Source: a virus
Taxonomy: Duplodnaviria > Heunggongvirae > Uroviricota > Caudoviricetes
Virus record (IMG/VR): IMGVR_UViG_2534682159_000013
Strand: one strand, 5' to 3'
DNA: 24,608 nt
Part shown: one piece after another, positions 1,422-6,731 of the stretch
How positions within the stretch are numbered: the first letter of the stretch is position 1
Layout of the letters: the number at the start of each line of letters is the position of its first letter
Translations under genes and position numbers: made by a program
The notes under the pieces: generated by a model
What the model was told of the DNA's origin: nothing
Databases searched by the model: none
Seen by the model: only the letters and a program-made list of their open reading frames with translations

Positions 1422-3893
1422 TTAAAAATCAGCCTGACTCGGGATCAGTTTTTGCCAGATGGCTGAAACGTATTTTGCCTGGTAACGCGCATCGTGCAGC
1501 GCGTTATGGCGTTCACCTTCGAATGGAATAGTCGTTCTTGCGTCGAAATCCATCACCAGTCCCAGAGCAACCATCGTTCTTACATCGCGATCATTGGTGT
1601 AACGCCACGGGCAGGGGATCCCCTGCCGTTCATATGAACGGCGTAAAATCACGTTGTCGAAAGTTGCACCGTTACCCCAGACCTGAACAAAAAATTCACC
1701 GGAGTTTTCGTCGATAAATTCCCGGAATTGCAGCAGTGCATCATCCAACGGGATTTCATCGGTCAGAATGGCGGATTGTGCTTCGCGTGACTGTTTCAGC
1801 CACCACTTAATGGTGCCCCGATCGATGACCCCGCCTGCGGTTTCCAGATCGATAGTTTTGCTGAATTCTGGCCCCATCTCTCCGGTTGCCGGATCAAAAA
1901 ACTTACCGGCTATAGCGTTTATTGGCGCATCAGGATTTTTTCCCATTGTTTCAAGGTCAATCATCAGATGGTGCCACAACCTGCTGGTGGATGTGATTTC
2001 ATGATGACCGTTCACTTTAATTAAGGGATTTGCTGTCTCGCCAGTTTTATTATCGCTGGCGTGATACTGATCGCTGATAGTGTTCTCCTTGTGCAGATGT
2101 TCAGTGCCTTCCATTTCCTCCGGATCATTTTCCTGAGCTTCAGCCTGATTCTCTTCATCGAATGTTTCCTGGTAGGTTGCGTTCCCCATCACCGCACCAC
2201 AGTCAGGACAGTTGCCGCCACCGGTCTGACCGCATGCGGTGCAAACTTTTTCCGGTTCTTGTTGCACTTCTGGTTCAGGCAGTTTCGTTTCTGGCTCGTT
2301 TTGTAACGCATTTGGACTGTTTTGTTCCGCTTTCTGGTCGTTTTGTTCCGATTCGGGCTGGTTCTGGTTCACAGAATCGCGGGTTTCAATCCCCTTAACC
2401 CATTTCGGATCATTCGGGTCGCTAATCCCTTCAACAAATTCACCACGTGATGCAGCAAGCAATTTATCGGTGTCAGGCTGGCTGATATTGGCTGCCTGCA
2501 TAATTTTGTTTACTTCGTCAGCGGTAACTTTTACCGGCTCTGGTTGTTCTGAATCTTCTGCGGTATCTGTATTTTGCTGTAAGCCCGTATATGTGCCATT
2601 TTTTCGGGCAAAATATTCTTCTTTTGAGATTTCGGTACCACCGGCAGCCAGCGCCTTGTCCAGGCCAGAAAGTTTGTTTGCCCTGCCGTATTTTTCCCCG
2701 TCCTTATCGGTAAAGACGAAATAAAACGGTCCTTCACGCTCTACAGATGGTTCAGCTTCCACCAGGATTTCATTTTTTTGAGAATTGGATTCTGCCGTCT
2801 CCACTGGATCAGTTTGTGCTGCTGACGACAGGATAGCATCAGCAGAGCTCTGGTCTGTTTCTTCATGTTCAAACACGCCCTTTGTCGTCAGGTATTCGCT
2901 GATGTATTTGTTCAGTGCAACGGGATCTTTGTGAATGTCGATCGGGCGCTCACGAACAAGGCCAAAAATAGTCTGACGGTCATAGCGAAGCGCATCAGGC
3001 TGTTTGCGCATTGATGCAGAGATACGCTTCCAGTCTTCGCGATCCTTGTCGATAACCTCATTTTTAGCCCAGCGATGGATGGTACCGTCAATGTTTCCGG
3101 CATCAATATCACCAGGCCAGAGAGCGTAAGCCAGCTCTTCATCCAGGGTTTTCCATGTCTGCTTGTATTCGCGACGAATGGCAGTAGTGACAGGGTTGAT
3201 TTTTGCTGCTGAGTTTTCAGTGTGCTGTTGGTTGACTCTGGCGCGGGCCAGCTCAACAACAGAAGTATGTTTCCCGGTTTCTTTTCGTTCTGCTTCGCGA
3301 CGTTTTTTCCAGGTGCGCATCTCTGCCTGAATTTCTGGCCATTTGGCACCAGGCTTACATTTATGCTTAACCCACCCGATGGCATACAGCTTAAGCTCCG
3401 GATACATGGCGTTAACTTCTGGCATTTTCATCAAAGCTTCCACGATATGTCCGTCGAAGGTTGCCATGTCTTCCTGCAACAATTCCTGTGCGCTAATCAC
3501 CATATCAACGGTGATGTTTTCACATGTATCGAACTTAACCATGACAGCGTTCTGTACTTCAGGGGCCAGCTTGTCAAAAGTGACGTTCATCGGATCTGAT
3601 TCAGGTTCGACCGGGACAAAGGAAGCAGACGCCTCATCCCAGCGGTTTTCCAGCATATATTCAGCATCCCAGGAGTCGAGGGCTGGGCGGGGTGTACCGG
3701 GTTTATCCTCACAGACAAGAAATTTATAAGCGCAGTCCTGAGCAGCCGGATAATGTTCAAGGAATTGCCAGTGAAATTTTGCGCGGGCGCGACGTTCATC
3801 ACCGGCTTCAATGGCAGTGGCCACAGCAACAGCGCCCTCGTTTTTTATTGCCTGTTCGTCAGGAATGGCAGCGCAAATAAATATTTTACTCAT
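1422..3893 (-). CDS. Large prophage exonuclease: C-terminal DnaQ-like DEDDh 3'-5' exonuclease domain, internal CxxC..CxxC zinc ribbon, low-complexity Q/E/N/P-rich linker
   Basis: 823-aa ORF. Exonuclease motifs read directly: 'MIDLETMG' (Exo I), 'VWGNGATFDNVIL' (Exo II), 'HNALHDARYQ' (Exo III). Zinc ribbon 'CTACGQTGGGNCPDCG'. A central block ('LLAASRGEFVEGISDPNDPKWVKG') matches my recollection of RecE, which is unverified. Confidence 0.8.
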   Translation of the reverse strand: MSKIFICAAIPDEQAIKNEGAVAVATAIEAGDERRARAKFHWQFLEHYPAAQDCAYKFLVCEDKPGTPRPALDSWDAEYMLENRWDEASASFVPVEPESDPMNVTFDKLAPEVQNAVMVKFDTCENITVDMVISAQELLQEDMATFDGHIVEALMKMPEVNAMYPELKLYAIGWVKHKCKPGAKWPEIQAEMRTWKKRREAERKETGKHTSVVELARARVNQQHTENSAAKINPVTTAIRREYKQTWKTLDEELAYALWPGDIDAGNIDGTIHRWAKNEVIDKDREDWKRISASMRKQPDALRYDRQTIFGLVRERPIDIHKDPVALNKYISEYLTTKGVFEHEETDQSSADAILSSAAQTDPVETAESNSQKNEILVEAEPSVEREGPFYFVFTDKDGEKYGRANKLSGLDKALAAGGTEISKEEYFARKNGTYTGLQQNTDTAEDSEQPEPVKVTADEVNKIMQAANISQPDTDKLLAASRGEFVEGISDPNDPKWVKGIETRDSVNQNQPESEQNDQKAEQNSPNALQNEPETKLPEPEVQQEPEKVCTACGQTGGGNCPDCGAVMGNATYQETFDEENQAEAQENDPEEMEGTEHLHKENTISDQYHASDNKTGETANPLIKVNGHHEITSTSRLWHHLMIDLETMGKNPDAPINAIAGKFFDPATGEMGPEFSKTIDLETAGGVIDRGTIKWWLKQSREAQSAILTDEIPLDDALLQFREFIDENSGEFFVQVWGNGATFDNVILRRSYERQGIPCPWRYTNDRDVRTMVALGLVMDFDARTTIPFEGERHNALHDARYQAKYVSAIWQKLIPSQADF

Positions 3894-3988
3894 TGTGTTT
3901 AAACCTCATTACAGATTTCAGGGTGAACGAATCCCTGCCATTGCTGGCATTTTTAATCCGTTGGTATGGCGTTAATATGGCTGGCGGG

Positions 3989-4177
3989 TTATCCAGCCGG
4001 TGTTTCGTTATTCAGGTACAGCGATACTTTGTTTAACGGGAGACATTCACCGGAAATTTTTTGCTCGTCTCTTGCCTGATGGCAGGATTCTTTACTGGCA
4101 TAAATTCCGGTAATCACATTCTGTGGCTCACCTGTTATCAGAAAAACCGTCATCATCAGTGCAAACGCTGAACTCAC
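3989..4177 (-). CDS. Hypothetical small protein with N-terminal hydrophobic segment and two Cys
   Basis: 62-aa ORF whose start overlaps the stop of the upstream ORF in an ATGA arrangement at 4174-4177 (translational coupling); lies in the early-left operon. Confidence 0.45.
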   Translation of the reverse strand: MSSAFALMMTVFLITGEPQNVITGIYASKESCHQARDEQKISGECLPLNKVSLYLNNETPAG

Positions 4178-4362
4178 TGCTGCCCTCCGAAAATGCCAAG
4201 TTTAATAAGGGCAATTCTGGAGAGAATGGAATTATCATTGAGAAGATAAGGCTCATATTTTCTCATCCTGATGGCATCTTCAGTAAACTCCCGGTTACTG
4301 AGCAGAATACCAATATTAAAACACCCTTCAGACGTATTAACGTTTGGTAGTGACGTTTCCAT
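4174..4362 (-). CDS. Hypothetical small protein
   Basis: 62-aa ORF with a GAGGA Shine-Dalgarno about 10 nt upstream of its ATG (seen on the minus strand); coupled to the 3989-4177 ORF. Confidence 0.45.
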   Translation of the reverse strand: METSLPNVNTSEGCFNIGILLSNREFTEDAIRMRKYEPYLLNDNSILSRIALIKLGIFGGQQ

Positions 4363-4890
4363 TATCGCGTCCTCAACAATGAATTTTGTGATGTGGTGCC
4401 TGGTGCCTCCAGGTGACGTTAACCAGTTAACAATTAACGCCGGATTGTTAGTTGATGTCTGTTACGCCAGTAAAAGACCGCTTGTTTTAACTGTTCCGCG
4501 TGCGCTTAGCCGCATTCACCGCATCACAAAATACACTTTAAAAATGGCGGATATCCATTTCCGCCGAATCACCAGAAAAGTGATAACAGAGGTTGTTGTG
4601 GCGGTGTTGTCACTCAGGCGTATGGTCAACCTGACAACCCGGTGCATTTTCTGGAGCAATGGAGGAAGCCTCAGCCATACTTACCGCCGCGCCATTTCGC
4701 GGATTGCCACAACCGGAAGCGCACGATCGAATTACATTTAACGACGACATATACAGAGAGACTAACTTCGCCGAGCGCTTTCGTGTTGTGTGCCTGCTTT
4801 TAACCACGTCAGGCGAGGTGGACCTGTTATTCCCCAACAACAAGGATCTTGTTAATCTGGATATCCCCAACAACAATAAGAGTATTGAAT

Positions 4891-5406
4891 GTGATCGCTG
4901 AATTAACGGCAGCAATGACGGCTATTCGTGAAACCGCTCAGATTGCAAAACTAATGAACGAGGCAAAAACTCAAGCTGAAGTAAATGCGGCTATTGGTGA
5001 ACTGAACTCAAAGCTTGCATCTATTCAGCACGAATGCGTGTCTCTCGTTGAGCTGGTGAGCACTTATCAAGAAATAAATGCTTCTCTCAAAGCTAAAATT
5101 GCAGAATTTGAAAACTTTGAGGCTCAGACGGAAGGTTATATCCTTAACCAACTTGAGTCGGGAACTTTTGTGTACTCGAAGGAGGTAACCGTGAACGGCG
5201 GCAGCATTATCATGCATCTTTGTCCAAAATGTTTTGGACAAAAGATAGTATCGATACTTCAACCATTCCCGGTTAGAGAATATGAGTTTTTTCATAAAAG
5301 CAGGTGCCTCTACTGTGAAAATCAGTTTCTTATGAATAAAAATCCGGATTATGTATCGCCTCCATCTATTGAGGAGTTGGCCAGAAAACTGAACGGCAAT
5401 CTGTAG
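4891..5406 (+). CDS. Hypothetical coiled-coil protein with C-terminal CxxC-x22-CxxC zinc ribbon, reverse-oriented moron
   Basis: About 171 aa from a GTG at 4891 (AAGAG Shine-Dalgarno 8 nt upstream); alternative starts are TTG 4849 and ATG 4915. N-terminal heptad-like, A/E/K-rich helix; 'CPKC' and 'CLYC' pair at the C-terminus. Visibly AT-rich; opposite in orientation to the surrounding minus-strand operon. Confidence 0.55.
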   Translation: MIAELTAAMTAIRETAQIAKLMNEAKTQAEVNAAIGELNSKLASIQHECVSLVELVSTYQEINASLKAKIAEFENFEAQTEGYILNQLESGTFVYSKEVTVNGGSIIMHLCPKCFGQKIVSILQPFPVREYEFFHKSRCLYCENQFLMNKNPDYVSPPSIEELARKLNGNL

Positions 5407-5519
5407 ATTGTTACTGTTATGGATATCCAGATTGTTAAAGAGCATGCCGGATGCTTGCTTGTGTCCGGCGCGTGTGCACCAGTTCTCCCCGTGGAGGATT
5501 CCTTAACTACCAGACTTCA

Positions 5520-5672
5520 TTAGTCAGAGTTTCTTGCTAACCAGCGACGCGCGCCAGCTTCAGTTTTAAACGTTTTGCTTCTGGTATACGTCATCGCGGT
5601 GAAGGTGCCGTCCTGGTTAGGGAACACACCGCATACCAGAGATTCGTTGTTGCCAAGATTGAGCGTATCCAT
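5520..5672 (-). CDS. Small 50-aa protein (MDTLNLGNNESLVCGVFPNQDGTFTAMTYTRSKTFKTEAGARRWLARNSD), possibly YdaF-like
   Basis: ORF below the size cut-off of the supplied track, found by hand. AATGAGG Shine-Dalgarno 7 nt upstream of the ATG; first ORF downstream of the leftward promoter region. The YdaF/DUF1391 resemblance is from memory only. Confidence 0.4.
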   Translation of the reverse strand: MDTLNLGNNESLVCGVFPNQDGTFTAMTYTRSKTFKTEAGARRWLARNSD

Positions 5673-5839
5673 GTTGACCTCATTTACCCTTAACGCCGGG
5701 TCGCGGAACTAAAAACCTGCTGCGCTGTTATACAAAGTGTTCCCGCCGTCATGTTCATACGCCTCGGGCTGGCTACTTAACTCCTGACCACTGCCGGGTA
5801 ACTCGAAGTATTGCCTGGCGTTCTGTGGGTGGGGTGGTT

Positions 5840-5905
5840 GGTTGATATAATGTACTTATTGTTCACTAATGTAAAGTACTTTTAGTACATTTTGTGAGGG
5901 ATAAA
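5840..5905. promoter_or_regulatory. OL-like operator/promoter module on the left side of the repressor gene
   Basis: Shares architecture with the OR region: 'aatgtact', a second 'gtact' about 25 nt later, then 'ttgtgaggg'. TATAAT-like hexamers on both strands. Confidence 0.4.
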
Positions 5906-5965
5906 ATATCAGGAGGGGATGAGAGGAGCATAAACCCGGAGGGAAGCTACCGGATTTATGCAGAT

Positions 5966-6385
5966 TCATGAGGCTTTTTGTTTTTTCTTTCGCGCTAATT
6001 CTTCATAAATTGCGTTGTACTTCTGTTTTTTCTCCTCAAGAGTTTTTAAAAGTTCATCAGTTTCACTGTCAGGGAGTTCATCAAGAAGTTCAATGATGAT
6101 TTTTTGCCTCGGACTTAACTCCTGATAGAAACGCAGGCTTCCGCTTTCTTCAGTGTCCTCCCCCAGAAGGTAAGTTGGTGTTGTTCCGATAAGTGCTGCC
6201 AATTCTTTCAGTTTCTCTCGACGGGGAATTGTCTCTCCATTAAACCATTTACTAACCGCTTTGGGTGTTAGCTTCATTCGACGGGCAATTTCTGCCTGCC
6301 TTCCGTGTTGTTCAAAGCCAGCATTTTCACAGGCTAGCGCAAGCCTGCTGGCGAACTCTTTACGCGCTTCATCTTCATGAACCAT
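5966..6385 (-). CDS. Phage repressor, XRE-family HTH (DicA/CI-like, no peptidase domain)
   Basis: 139-aa ORF. N-terminal HTH ('QAEIARRMKLTPKAVSKWFNGETIP') followed by an acidic/lysine-rich C-terminal helix; divergent from the Cro-like gene; no Shine-Dalgarno before the ATG, so possibly leaderless like lambda cI. Confidence 0.85.
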   Translation of the reverse strand: MVHEDEARKEFASRLALACENAGFEQHGRQAEIARRMKLTPKAVSKWFNGETIPRREKLKELAALIGTTPTYLLGEDTEESGSLRFYQELSPRQKIIIELLDELPDSETDELLKTLEEKKQKYNAIYEELARKKKQKAS

Positions 6386-6464
6386 AAGTTCAATGATATT
6401 TGCTATTGAATGTACTGTCAGTTCTGTTATATTGTGTACTCAAAGTTCATATTGTGAGGGTGAT
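6386..6464. promoter_or_regulatory. Divergent PRM/PR region with operator repeats (OR)
   Basis: 79-bp intergenic region between the divergent repressor and cro genes. Repeated 'tgtact' half-sites and 'aagttca' repeats; candidate rightward promoter TTGAAT-16-TATATT; GAGGG Shine-Dalgarno before the cro ATG. Confidence 0.6.
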
Positions 6465-6731
6465 ATGAGCCATGCAACACTTGCAGATGTAATCAAAGCA
6501 GTTCGCGTTTCTGTTGTAGCCGATGTTTGCGGTGTCAGCCAAAGAGCAATCTACAAATGGATGAATAATGGAAAATTACCGCGCACAGAATATACAGGCG
6601 AAACAAATTACGCTGAAAAAATTGCTCTGGCATCAAACGGATTATTTTCTGCTGATGCGGTTTTGACTATTGGCAGGATTAAGCCTACAGCGAATGAATC
6701 ACTGGCGGTGAACAATGAAAATCACCCCTGA
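6465..6731 (+). CDS. Cro-like HTH regulator (YdaS-like)
   Basis: 88 aa from the ATG at 6465 (the track ORF 6393-6731 extends further upstream). HTH 'VCGVSQRAIYKWMNNGKLP'; position divergent from the repressor. Confidence 0.7.
   Translation: MSHATLADVIKAVRVSVVADVCGVSQRAIYKWMNNGKLPRTEYTGETNYAEKIALASNGLFSADAVLTIGRIKPTANESLAVNNENHP

Follow-up and report, generated by a model that had tools for sequence, protein, structure and literature searches.

The rightward gene at positions 4891-5406 of the window, which is the whole stretch of 24,608 nucleotides that was analysed, is probably an abortive-infection gene of the Rip1 family that occupies a sieB-type slot. The repeats on both sides of it would be parts of a sieB-type leader, the right arm being an inverted leader copy fused to a boxA, and the gene would be controlled by an antisense RNA and through this boxA. 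The window is from a Qin/Rac-type lambdoid prophage, and with this gene a divergent member from E. coli (a STEC O91/O113-type prophage) would join the Rip1 family of pore-forming defence proteins. Because the product is a Rip1 relative and the repeats lie in the known control region of sieB, the observation is largely explained by known biology; the 3' inverted copy with its boxA and the breadth of use of the leader may be previously undescribed.

The product of the gene at 4891-5406

The ORF at 4891-5406 (plus strand, GTG start, 171 residues), for which RefSeq has a hypothetical protein on that strand, is a real gene; it has 119 close homologues, and its family counts more than 3,000 representatives (3,223 cluster representatives at E≤1e-3). 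HK446 Rip1 (Protein Data Bank [PDB] entry: 9oox) is matched over its full length when a profile of 40 homologues is used as the query (E=1.7e-23, query residues 6-156 against residues 16-160 of the chain); the single-sequence query gives E=1.4e-7, and BLASTP of the 171-residue protein against HK446 gp37 gives E=3e-13, with 27% sequence identity. The protein also matches phrog_1244, an unnamed family of PHROGs (E=1e-57), and the searches of Pfam, NCBIfam and PADLOC give no match. The AF2 model (pLDDT 89) has two long N-terminal helices (residues 2-23 and 28-79), for which the hydrophobic moment is modest (0.1-0.4), followed by a beta-rich C-terminal domain (strands from residues 84-150) with four invariant cysteines, C111, C114, C139 and C142. 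When this model is compared with the PDB using Foldseek, 9oox is the only significant match (E=3.5e-7, probability 1.0), with target-normalised TM values of 0.53-0.71 for chains 9oox_L and 9oox_M.

The profile search, the AF2 model and Foldseek, which are the kinds of check proposed in the earlier sequence-only reading, all point to Rip1, and by this homology the product is placed in the antiphage family of Rip1 ("ring interacting pore 1"), as a divergent member with 27-28% identity. The earlier description of a CxxC-x22-CxxC motif is right about the two CxxC pairs but not about the spacing, since C111/C114 and C139/C142 define a CxxC-x24-CxxC motif. The Rip1 proteins of Pseudomonas aeruginosa and HK446 oligomerise around the rings of the small terminase or the portal, form a membrane pore and protect against phage (PMC13434031, section 8). 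By homology to the HK446 and Pseudomonas prophage proteins, the rip1-like protein should stay idle in the lysogen; around ring-shaped assembly proteins of a phage, the small terminase or the portal, it should form a membrane pore and so kill the infected cell early.

The genomic slot and the boundaries of the module

The rip1-like gene is oriented rightward within a leftward early operon of the Qin/dicB type, which is without N, and it is located between ydfA and DicF. Its neighbours on the left (dicB, a DUF1482 gene and exo) and on the right (ydfA and an HTH repressor) are all on the minus strand, as expected from the reverse orientation that had been noted earlier. Rip1 homologues occupy prophage early regions: the HK446 gene (gp37) is on the plus strand and abuts N (minus strand), exactly at the position of sieB in lambda and P22, and a Citrobacter homologue is flanked by xis and an S24 repressor, both on the minus strand. 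As judged from the sequence, the slot of the rip1-like gene is of the sieB type, beside the immunity region. This interval had been proposed to be a hotspot for defence and exclusion genes, and this is in agreement with the assignment of the product to a characterised antiphage family, Rip1. The cassette had also been described as AT-rich; its GC content is indeed lower, but the difference is modest (0.38-0.43 as compared with 0.45-0.53 in the flanks). The minus-strand ORF 5008-5445 and the plus-strand ORF 4271-4741 are not treated as genes, because neither of them has family matches.

Three comparisons define the extent of the module, the left boundary being placed at about 4784-4830 and the right boundary at about 5443-5515, depending on the comparator. 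In PhiR49_1, which has an unrelated lambdoid backbone, the same module is found with 94% identity over window positions 4784-5443, in the same reverse orientation, between yfdP and cI (both on the minus strand). The comparison with mEp460, HannyBb and 606R7 gives bounds of about 4824/4830 to 5447, and in prophage Sp14 of O157 Sakai the flanks are joined without the cassette, giving bounds of about 4800 to 5505. The description of an accessory module in the early-left region, consisting of one reverse-oriented gene, is therefore borne out, since the same block is present in PhiR49_1 and absent from Sp14. The suggestion that the repeats are the ends of an insertion does not hold, as the module ends fall beyond both arms in all three comparisons, by 24-70 bp on the left and by 10-80 bp on the right. 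The 13-bp repeats sit inside an exchangeable module and not at its ends. They are also not tied to this particular gene: other cargo genes carry them, and some rip1 homologues (HK446, L009/L100 and L015) are without them.

The repeats and the sieB-type leader

The repeats described in the sequence-only reading are all present as reported. The left arm of the inverted repeat, AATCTGGATATCC, is at 4854-4866 and its exact 13-bp counterpart, GGATATCCAGATT, is at 5421-5433, within a right arm that extends over 5408-5433; beyond the exact part, the complementarity is 81% over 26 nucleotides (4854-4879 and 5408-5433). These two are the only exact copies in the 24.6-kb window, in which three matches with at most two mismatches to the 13-bp arm are found as against 0.48 expected. 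The exact 13-bp direct repeat on the left side, TCCCCAACAACAA, is at 4831-4843 and 4864-4876, and AGATTGTTA is present twice on the right side, at 5405-5413 and 5429-5437. The left arm is located 37 bp before the start codon and the right arm 14 bp after the stop codon. This position of the left arm, at -37, is found in about 90 loci and is kept exactly where the homologues, from several genera, share only 46-61% protein identity, and for this reason the left-arm repeat is considered to be more than a chance match.

The direct repeat and the left arm belong, on homology grounds, to a conserved sieB-type leader of about 100 nucleotides (4793-4890), a homologue of the leader that precedes sieB in lambda and P22. 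The leader begins with a 30-nucleotide core, GCCTGCTTTTAACCACGTCAGGCGAGGTGG (4793-4822), consisting of hairpin H1 (GCCUG/CAGGC) and then GGTGG. It continues with the H2 hairpin region (4823-4850), the loop of which carries the first C/A-rich copy of the direct repeat, and with a putative -10-like hexamer, GTTAAT (4851-4856, plus strand), for which a transcription start near 4862-4864 is predicted. The second C/A-rich copy (4864-4876, plus strand) would then belong to the 5' UTR and directly precede AAGAG (4878-4882), which would be a weak Shine-Dalgarno sequence. In lambda and P22 the core block directly precedes sieB, and in HK446 it precedes rip1; an exact-pattern scan gives at least 120 IMG/VR contigs with the block, which stands before many different ORFs. 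The genes behind it are reverse-oriented and many of them are unrelated to each other, SieB itself being included. The conservation upstream of the gene begins sharply near 4791, and the mean pairwise identity of the upstream 105 nucleotides is 81%, as compared with 56-60% in the coding sequence. A BLASTN search with the sieB-type leader of locus L112, which is identical to the leader of VT1-Sakai and of several lambda-type phages, returns 130 phages, at or beside sieB.

The position of the -10-like hexamer is occupied by TATAAT in L094, L102, L131, L147 and L158, by TAAACT in lambda and P22 and by TAAAAT in HK446; a generic promoter and terminator scan calls no plus-strand promoter upstream of the gene, and GTTAAT at 4851-4856 is also not called. 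The two repeat copies co-vary across the leader families, which have CCCCAACAAC, CCCCTACAG, TTCCACAGTCAA, CCCCCACAA or CCCCAATGCAA, in each case twice, and the sequence of the H2 stem varies by leader family, the pairing being kept always. When RNAalifold is applied to 30 leaders, only the invariant H1 is recovered, as the H2 stems slide and were not brought into register by MAFFT, and H2 was therefore assessed sequence by sequence; H1, being invariant, provides no covariation evidence. Over 77 distinct H2 segments the mean minimum free energy is -6.9 kcal/mol in the plus sense and -8.4 kcal/mol in the minus sense, compared with -4.4 kcal/mol for the shuffles, and for 58 of the 77 the minus sense gives the more stable fold.

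Two other interpretations of the leader were considered and rejected. The core block could act as an extended -10 promoter (TGgTATCCT) in the short type A leaders, but in the type B leader of the window the hexamer is degenerate. The C/A-rich repeats could mark an AgvB-like sponge of GcvB, and this idea is rejected because there is no Rfam match and the region is the sieB leader; a permissive Rfam search of 3800-6600 gives only a sub-threshold STnc100 match, outside the cassette, and does not find AgvB, C4 or DicF.

A possible antisense RNA

In P22, the sas antisense RNA turns off the translation of the exclusion protein during the lytic growth of the phage itself. By homology to P22 sas, a sas-like antisense RNA is predicted on the minus strand at 4788-4896, and this region is complementary to the translation start of the rip1-like gene, to repeat copy 2, to H2 and to H1. 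In P22 this leader region, read as its reverse complement, corresponds to the 3' part of sas, according to the sequence in Table 2 of PMC13397905. When the antisense folds are compared with shuffles, the window copy is no more stable (z=+0.2), and for P22 sas a z of -2.4 is obtained. It is possible that, as in P22, leftward transcription during lytic growth generates a structured sas-like RNA, which would pair with the 5' UTR and the start codon and would shut off the synthesis of the toxic protein as the phage replicates. Rip1 genes share the sieB slot together with its leader, for which antisense control is inferred from P22, and this may be an answer to the question of how a prophage escapes its own Rip1 while it is building its own terminase and portal rings.

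The 3' element and the boxA

The segment of the leader from the -10-like element through repeat copy 2 is partially copied, in inverted orientation, in the right arm. Of the approximately 55 distinct 3'-end contexts recovered from the fetched loci, most have the corresponding 3' element, CCAGATTGTTAAAGAGC, at a distance of 584-886 nucleotides downstream of the leader, and it is also present in cassettes with cargo other than Rip1. On the operon (minus) strand, the sequence GCTCTTTAACA at 5433-5443, immediately upstream of the stretch that is antisense to the cargo, is a perfect match to GYTCTTTAANA, the gamma-proteobacterial boxA consensus (Baniulyte 2017, PMC5725501). This is the only match in the window, compared with 0.11 expected. 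Downstream of the leader, the motif is present on the minus strand in 46 of 111 distinct cassettes, most of these 46 belonging to one sequence family, so that they are not independent; in the 111 cassettes it is never found on the plus strand and never, on either strand, upstream of the leader.

The boxA may let Nus factors carry the leftward RNA polymerase across about 600 nucleotides of untranslated antisense RNA without Rho termination, and such antitermination would spare dicF, dicB and exo from polarity. Two features count against this role: the boxA of the window overlaps the inverted copy of the -10-like element and could therefore be a by-product of the duplication, and, on the leftward strand, the boxA of most other loci is immediately preceded by a terminator hairpin. 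In the window, the position at which most other loci have the rho-independent terminator AAGCGTCCnnnnGGGCGCTTTTTT is taken by a backbone hairpin, GCCGGA-N12-TCCGGC (5446-5469), just outside the cassette; in the 606R7 backbone, the segment homologous to this hairpin region directly adjoins the left flank.

Alternative explanations

The two arms could be paired DNA operators, as had been suggested earlier, for one dimeric regulator, either host-encoded or the gene product, that acts, possibly through looping, on the rightward promoter and on a leftward promoter convergent with it. The core of the arm, GGATATCC, is a palindrome, the arm sequence is conserved without compensatory change, the left arm coincides in part with the predicted region of the -10 and the transcription start, and the right arm inverts the same promoter segment, with analogous inverted copies in the leader families L102 and L147. 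Nevertheless, this explanation is rather unlikely: the prophages with the cassette have unrelated repressors (DicA-like, cI/S24 and HK446 type), so that there is no phage regulator common to them, no third copy of the arm is found near the immunity region, other leader families differ in sequence at the arm position, and DNA binding is absent from the available accounts of Rip1. Pairing of the arms within the rip1 mRNA, between the 5' UTR and the 3' UTR, would provide a built-in mimic of sas that masks the C/A-rich element and damps translation or stabilises the transcript. This would agree with the 26-nucleotide complementarity, with the variant 3' arms of L107, L194, L220 and L184, which are still complementary to AAUCUGG...CCCCAAC in shifted registers, and with the terminator that directly follows the arm in most loci and would place it in the 3' UTR. 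However, the arm variants in L091/093/094, L097, L018, L016 and L012 break pairs and are uncompensated, which argues against a strict RNA duplex, and a search across the loci for compensatory changes between the two arms gives no convincing case. Moreover, the lambda, P22 and HK446 leader families have no long inverted repeat, and a transcription start near 4862-4864, if correct, leaves most of the left arm outside the mRNA. This pairing is quite improbable.

A small mobile element (a MITE- or IS-like cassette) with the 13-bp inverted repeats as its termini is very unlikely, and is already largely refuted by the boundary comparisons. Such an element would account for the gene and the repeats forming one 660-bp block in an unrelated backbone, for the absence of the block from Sakai Sp14 and for the repeats being exact and conserved. 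It does not account for the module ends that fall outside both arms, for the left flank, where the sieB leader of lambda and P22 occupies a fixed slot in the genome, or for the same flanks holding other cargo. No target-site duplication is seen at the junctions in the comparisons with PhiR49_1, with mEp460, HannyBb and 606R7, and with Sp14, and no transposase is annotated near the cassette. A fixed slot with swapped cargo fits homologous recombination at conserved flanks rather than transposition. Equally, the outline of a DksA/TraR-like zinc-ribbon factor, which would bind RNA polymerase, extends to an N-terminal helical region followed by four cysteines; these have the x24 spacing and lie within a beta-rich domain, there is no zinc-finger match in Pfam or NCBIfam, and Rip1 is the only significant relative in sequence and in structure. 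This reading of the product is refuted at the level of homology and has hardly any probability left.

Implications of the sieB-type leader

A wider reading, which is tentative and may well not hold, is that abortive-infection genes of prophages in general use the sieB/sas leader as a plug-in platform for their expression, so that this leader is not specific to a single gene. The platform would consist of the constant H1 core and a specificity module of the two co-varying C/A-rich repeats, one in the hairpin loop and one in the 5' UTR, to which operons without N would add the inverted 3' copy and a boxA of their own. Any toxic cargo (Rip1, SieB or more than 15 uncharacterised families) would be silenced by the antisense RNA when the carrier goes lytic, and the host operon would be insulated from polarity. 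The 30-nucleotide core marks many unrelated, small, uncharacterised genes in the sieB-type slot, so that it could serve as a cheap handle on new exclusion and defence genes; if the platform reading is true, new defence genes could be found with the core as their sequence tag.

Comparison with known systems

Rip1 has reportedly been characterised as HK446 gp37 (PDB entry: 9oox) and from a Pseudomonas aeruginosa prophage. The protein of the window is similar to it in length (171 as compared with 164 residues), in the long N-terminal helices and the beta-rich C-terminal domain, in having the same four cysteines and in being encoded by a single prophage gene, and like HK446 rip1 this gene is reversed inside a leftward early operon, behind an identical 30-nucleotide leader core. 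The identity to HK446 Rip1 is only 27-28%, the leader family repeat is CCCCAACAAC in the window and CCCCTACAG in HK446, the 13-bp inverted repeat and the 3' boxA element are both missing in HK446, and the operon of the window is of the dicB/Qin type without N.

The sieB/esc genes of P22 with the sas antisense RNA, and sieB of lambda, are said to form the classical system in this slot. The slot and the orientation are shared, and so are the identical H1-GGTGG core, H2 with a C-rich loop, the -10-like element and the loop motif that is repeated ahead of the start codon; the cargo of both systems is an abortive-infection or exclusion gene expressed from the prophage, for the window by homology. 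The cargo of the window is Rip1-like and not SieB (PF14163), and at the 3' end the window also carries an inverted copy of the leader segment with a boxA of its own; in lambda and P22 a match to the boxA consensus is about 1.1-1.3 kb downstream of the leader, at the expected place of nutL, upstream of N or gene 24. The sas RNA is known in P22, and a sas-like RNA is predicted for the window.

BoxA/Nus antitermination of untranslated transcripts is described for the rrn operons and for CRISPR arrays, where a boxA that precedes a long untranslatable stretch gives protection against Rho (Stringer et al. 2020, PMC7665894; Baniulyte et al. 2017, PMC5725501). The strand-specific 3' boxA would be a further case of such Nus-dependent protection of untranslated RNA, beside rRNA operons and CRISPR arrays. 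As in these systems, the perfect GYTCTTTAANA match of the window is on the transcribed strand, before a long stretch that is untranslatable on that strand; unlike them, the candidate is at the 3' end of a reverse-oriented gene within a prophage operon, and it overlaps an inverted promoter-like copy.

Identification of a divergent Rip1 relative

The ORF at 4891-5406 (+) has a GTG start and encodes 171 aa. Its product has no match in Pfam, NCBIfam or PADLOC, and in PHROGs it matches only the unnamed phrog_1244; the 119 homologues found across Enterobacterales in the database search are all annotated as hypothetical, as is the ORF itself, on the same strand, in RefSeq entries of identical STEC genomes. 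When the profile of 40 homologues is compared with the solved structures, one full-length match is found (E=1.7e-23), PDB entry 9oox, being "ring interacting pore 1 (Rip1)" of Escherichia phage HK446 in complex with the T6 small terminase. The same entry is found with the single sequence (E=1.4e-7), and it is the sole significant PDB neighbour of the AlphaFold2 model (E=3.5e-7, probability 1.0, 28% identity), which has a pLDDT of 89 and consists of a pair of long helices at the N-terminus and a C-terminal domain rich in beta structure. The DksA/TraR likeness suggested by the sequence-only reading finds no support, 9oox being the only significant fold match. The CxxC pair described in that reading is present (C111, C114, C139, C142), with a spacing of x24 rather than x22, and in the 40-sequence alignment no variation is seen at the four cysteines, G91 or Y95, and conservation of the LKAKIAEFENF motif is high. 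Judged by its sequence and predicted fold, the ORF product adds a divergent new member to the Rip1 family.

A 2026 review (PMC13434031, citing Patel et al., Nature 2026) describes Rip1 as a single-protein defence encoded by prophages, non-toxic by itself and triggered by portal or small-terminase rings; the 12-mer assembles around the 11-mer terminase ring, and pore formation leads to premature cell lysis. Rip1 homologues are described there as widespread among proteobacterial prophages, in agreement with the 3,223 cluster representatives (E<=1e-3) found in the full-database profile search. By analogy, the function and trigger of the ORF product would be those of Rip1.

The gene is part of a swappable module

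The window, a Qin/Rac-type lambdoid prophage, has the gene order int, xis, exonuclease, DUF1482, dicB and a shortened DicF-like sRNA (all -), the ORF (4891-5406, +), ydfA (DUF1391) and a DicA-like HTH repressor (both -), and a cro-like gene and YdaT (+). Since its neighbours on both sides are on the minus strand, the ORF lies backwards inside the leftward dicB-type operon. In the DicF-like sRNA (about 4538-4582, -), the terminator hairpin GGCGGAAAUGGAUAUCCGCC and a U-run come immediately after the conserved seed UUUCUGGUGA, and about 17 nt of canonical DicF are missing; TGGATATCC in its hairpin is the same core as in the inverted repeat. Rfam does not call this sRNA, giving only a sub-threshold STnc100 match at 4330-4547 (-). 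For the 156-aa ORF at 4271-4741 (+), which overlaps the end of dicB and the DicF region, there is no Pfam or PHROG match and no RefSeq annotation, so that it is unlikely to be a gene. From about 10245 onward (+), a valyl-tRNA synthetase pseudogene fragment (RefSeq) is present in the replication/Nin-like region.

All sequence features reported for the cassette are found in the window: the 13-bp inverted repeat, with AATCTGGATATCC at 4854-4866 (left arm) and GGATATCCAGATT at 5421-5433 (right arm), the 13-bp direct repeat TCCCCAACAACAA at 4831-4843 and 4864-4876 (copies 1 and 2), and two occurrences of AGATTGTTA at the right end. The inverted repeat extends to 26 nt with 81% complementarity, and its 13-mer has no further exact copy within the window. 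The AT bias is modest. The proposal that the 13-bp repeats are the insertion ends does not hold, as in related prophages the ends are not at the repeats, and in three independent comparisons the module ends outside both arms. Phage PhiR49_1, with an unrelated CPS-53/e14-like backbone, carries a block corresponding to 4784-5443 (94% identity) and has nothing else in common with the window; its neighbours there are yfdP (-) and cI (-), and its orientation is reverse, as in the window. The dicB-type phages mEp460, HannyBb and 606R7 have the flanks in common with the window and a different cargo gene, with similarity stopping at about 4824-4830 and restarting at about 5447-5517. The O157 Sakai prophage Sp14 has one flank next to the other, separated only by a shortened H1-like hairpin. 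By these comparisons, the ORF with its flanks is a swappable module. The arms lie inside it, 24-70 bp from the left end and 10-80 bp from the right end, which speaks strongly against transposon ends; no transposase is present, and no target-site duplication is seen at the compared junctions. The empty Sp14 slot (1700-1790 of the fetched E. coli O157:H7 locus, L226) joins the dicF-side flank to ydfA, and its hairpin is CCCTGACTTTTCAGGG.

A conserved leader shared by many cargo genes

Among diverged homologues, the ~100 nt that precede the start codon have a mean pairwise identity of 81%, versus 56-60% for the gene, with a sharp onset of conservation near 4791. This leader comprises hairpin H1 plus GGTGG (4793-4822), hairpin H2 with repeat copy 1 in its loop (about 4823-4850), a -10-like hexamer GTTAAT (4851-4856), the left arm (4854-4866), repeat copy 2 (4864-4876) and a weak Shine-Dalgarno sequence AAGAG (4878-4882), followed by the GTG start (4891). 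Loci from Citrobacter, Scandinavium, Symbiopectobacterium, Izhakiella, Kluyvera, Kosakonia and Enterobacter have the left arm at precisely -37. At the -10-like position, TATAAT is found in several relatives, TAAACT in lambda/P22 and TAAAAT in HK446.

The first 30 nt, GCCTGCTTTTAACCACGTCAGGCGAGGTGG, are also present 5' of HK446 rip1, whose protein is only 27% identical. In mEp460 and HannyBb the core stands 5' of unrelated ORFs on the plus strand, and scanning IMG/VR for the exact pattern shows it in at least 120 contigs. The IMG/VR matches listed, together with the loci already fetched, give 131 distinct leader-plus-cargo sequences; a downstream ORF is present in 121, and only 36 of these 121 are Rip1-like. 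Among the matches listed, two of the non-Rip1 cargo families are SieB (PF14163), and the others have no Pfam or PADLOC assignment. In the literature available, we found no description of such wide reuse of one leader.

Several other cargos were seen. Four IMG/VR contigs (L103, L132, L194, L220) have the same leader and 3' element around a 150-164-aa membrane protein (MTRDD...) without Pfam or PADLOC match, with tiny proline-rich ORFs on both sides. A 144-148-aa family with a conserved ...EWDP.L terminus (L107, L119, L137 and relatives), likewise encoded behind this leader and for which no family assignment was obtained, is a candidate uncharacterised exclusion gene. The 136-aa cargo at L155:4038-4550 has a Rip1-like outline (N-terminal coiled coil, CPNC...CSFC motif) and is not picked up by the Rip1 profile. 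In L129, L152 and L189, about 200 nt without an ORF come after the leader core; this stretch contains repeated AACTTAACTTAG and AAACTAAACTTAGCTT motifs and may be a non-coding RNA cargo.

The right arm belongs to a 3' element with a boxA

The fetched loci give ~55 distinct 3'-end contexts, and in most of these, several with non-Rip1 cargo, the leader is followed at a distance of 584-886 nt by the 3' element CCAGATTGTTAAAGAGC. After this element most loci have a rho-independent terminator; the window has a backbone hairpin instead. The element repeats, in inverted orientation, the part of the leader that extends from the -10-like hexamer to repeat copy 2. Its sequence on the leftward strand, (A)TGCTCTTTAACAA, matches the gamma-proteobacterial boxA consensus GYTCTTTAANA perfectly (Baniulyte 2017). 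The window has one consensus match versus 0.11 expected. In the 1.5 kb that follow the leader, the consensus is on the minus strand in 46 of 111 distinct cassettes, mostly of one sequence family, and on the plus strand in none; upstream of the leader it is absent from all 111 on either strand. Two other leader families, those of loci L102 and L147, have their own inverted leader copy, with boxA 25-36 nt further on. In lambda/P22-type loci the motif is about 1.1-1.3 kb downstream of the leader, at the expected nutL position. BoxA is known to shield untranslated transcripts (rRNA, CRISPR arrays) from Rho (PMC7665894). By analogy, the window site would be active, and a boxA at the cassette 3' end would allow leftward transcription to pass through the cargo antisense, which cannot be translated. 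The literature available yielded no description of a 3' inverted leader copy with boxA.

Strict pairing of the two arms as an RNA duplex is not supported, since long inverted repeats (>=12 nt) are limited to the AATCTGGATATCC leader family and natural variants of the arms show no compensation. It is possible that the arms act at the DNA level, as convergent promoter copies or as an operator.

Relation to sieB and sas

The flanking repeats are parts of a sieB/sas-type regulatory cassette. BLASTN with one such leader places it directly 5' of sieB in lambda (match 34397-34480; sieB 34482-35036), P22 and about 130 other phages, and the RNA-seq sequence of P22 sas, the antisense RNA of sieB (PMC13397905, Table 2), is the reverse complement of the leader, covering it from the start codon of sieB to slightly beyond H1. 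According to reviews (primary source Ranade and Poteete 1993), sas base-pairs with the mRNA of sieB and acts as a switch of its translation, as required for SieB/Esc exclusion to spare P22 itself. Across leader families the H2 stem varies in sequence with its pairing kept, the minus sense being usually more stable, and the two repeat copies change together, as expected if a single antisense partner has to match both. Pairing with the 5' UTR copy would be nucleated by the loop copy of the antisense RNA. Compared with shuffled sequences, the antisense leader of the window folds no better (z=+0.2), versus z=-2.4 for P22 sas. By analogy, the ORF may be controlled by a sas-like RNA. In HK446, rip1 occupies exactly the lambda/P22 sieB slot, abutting N.
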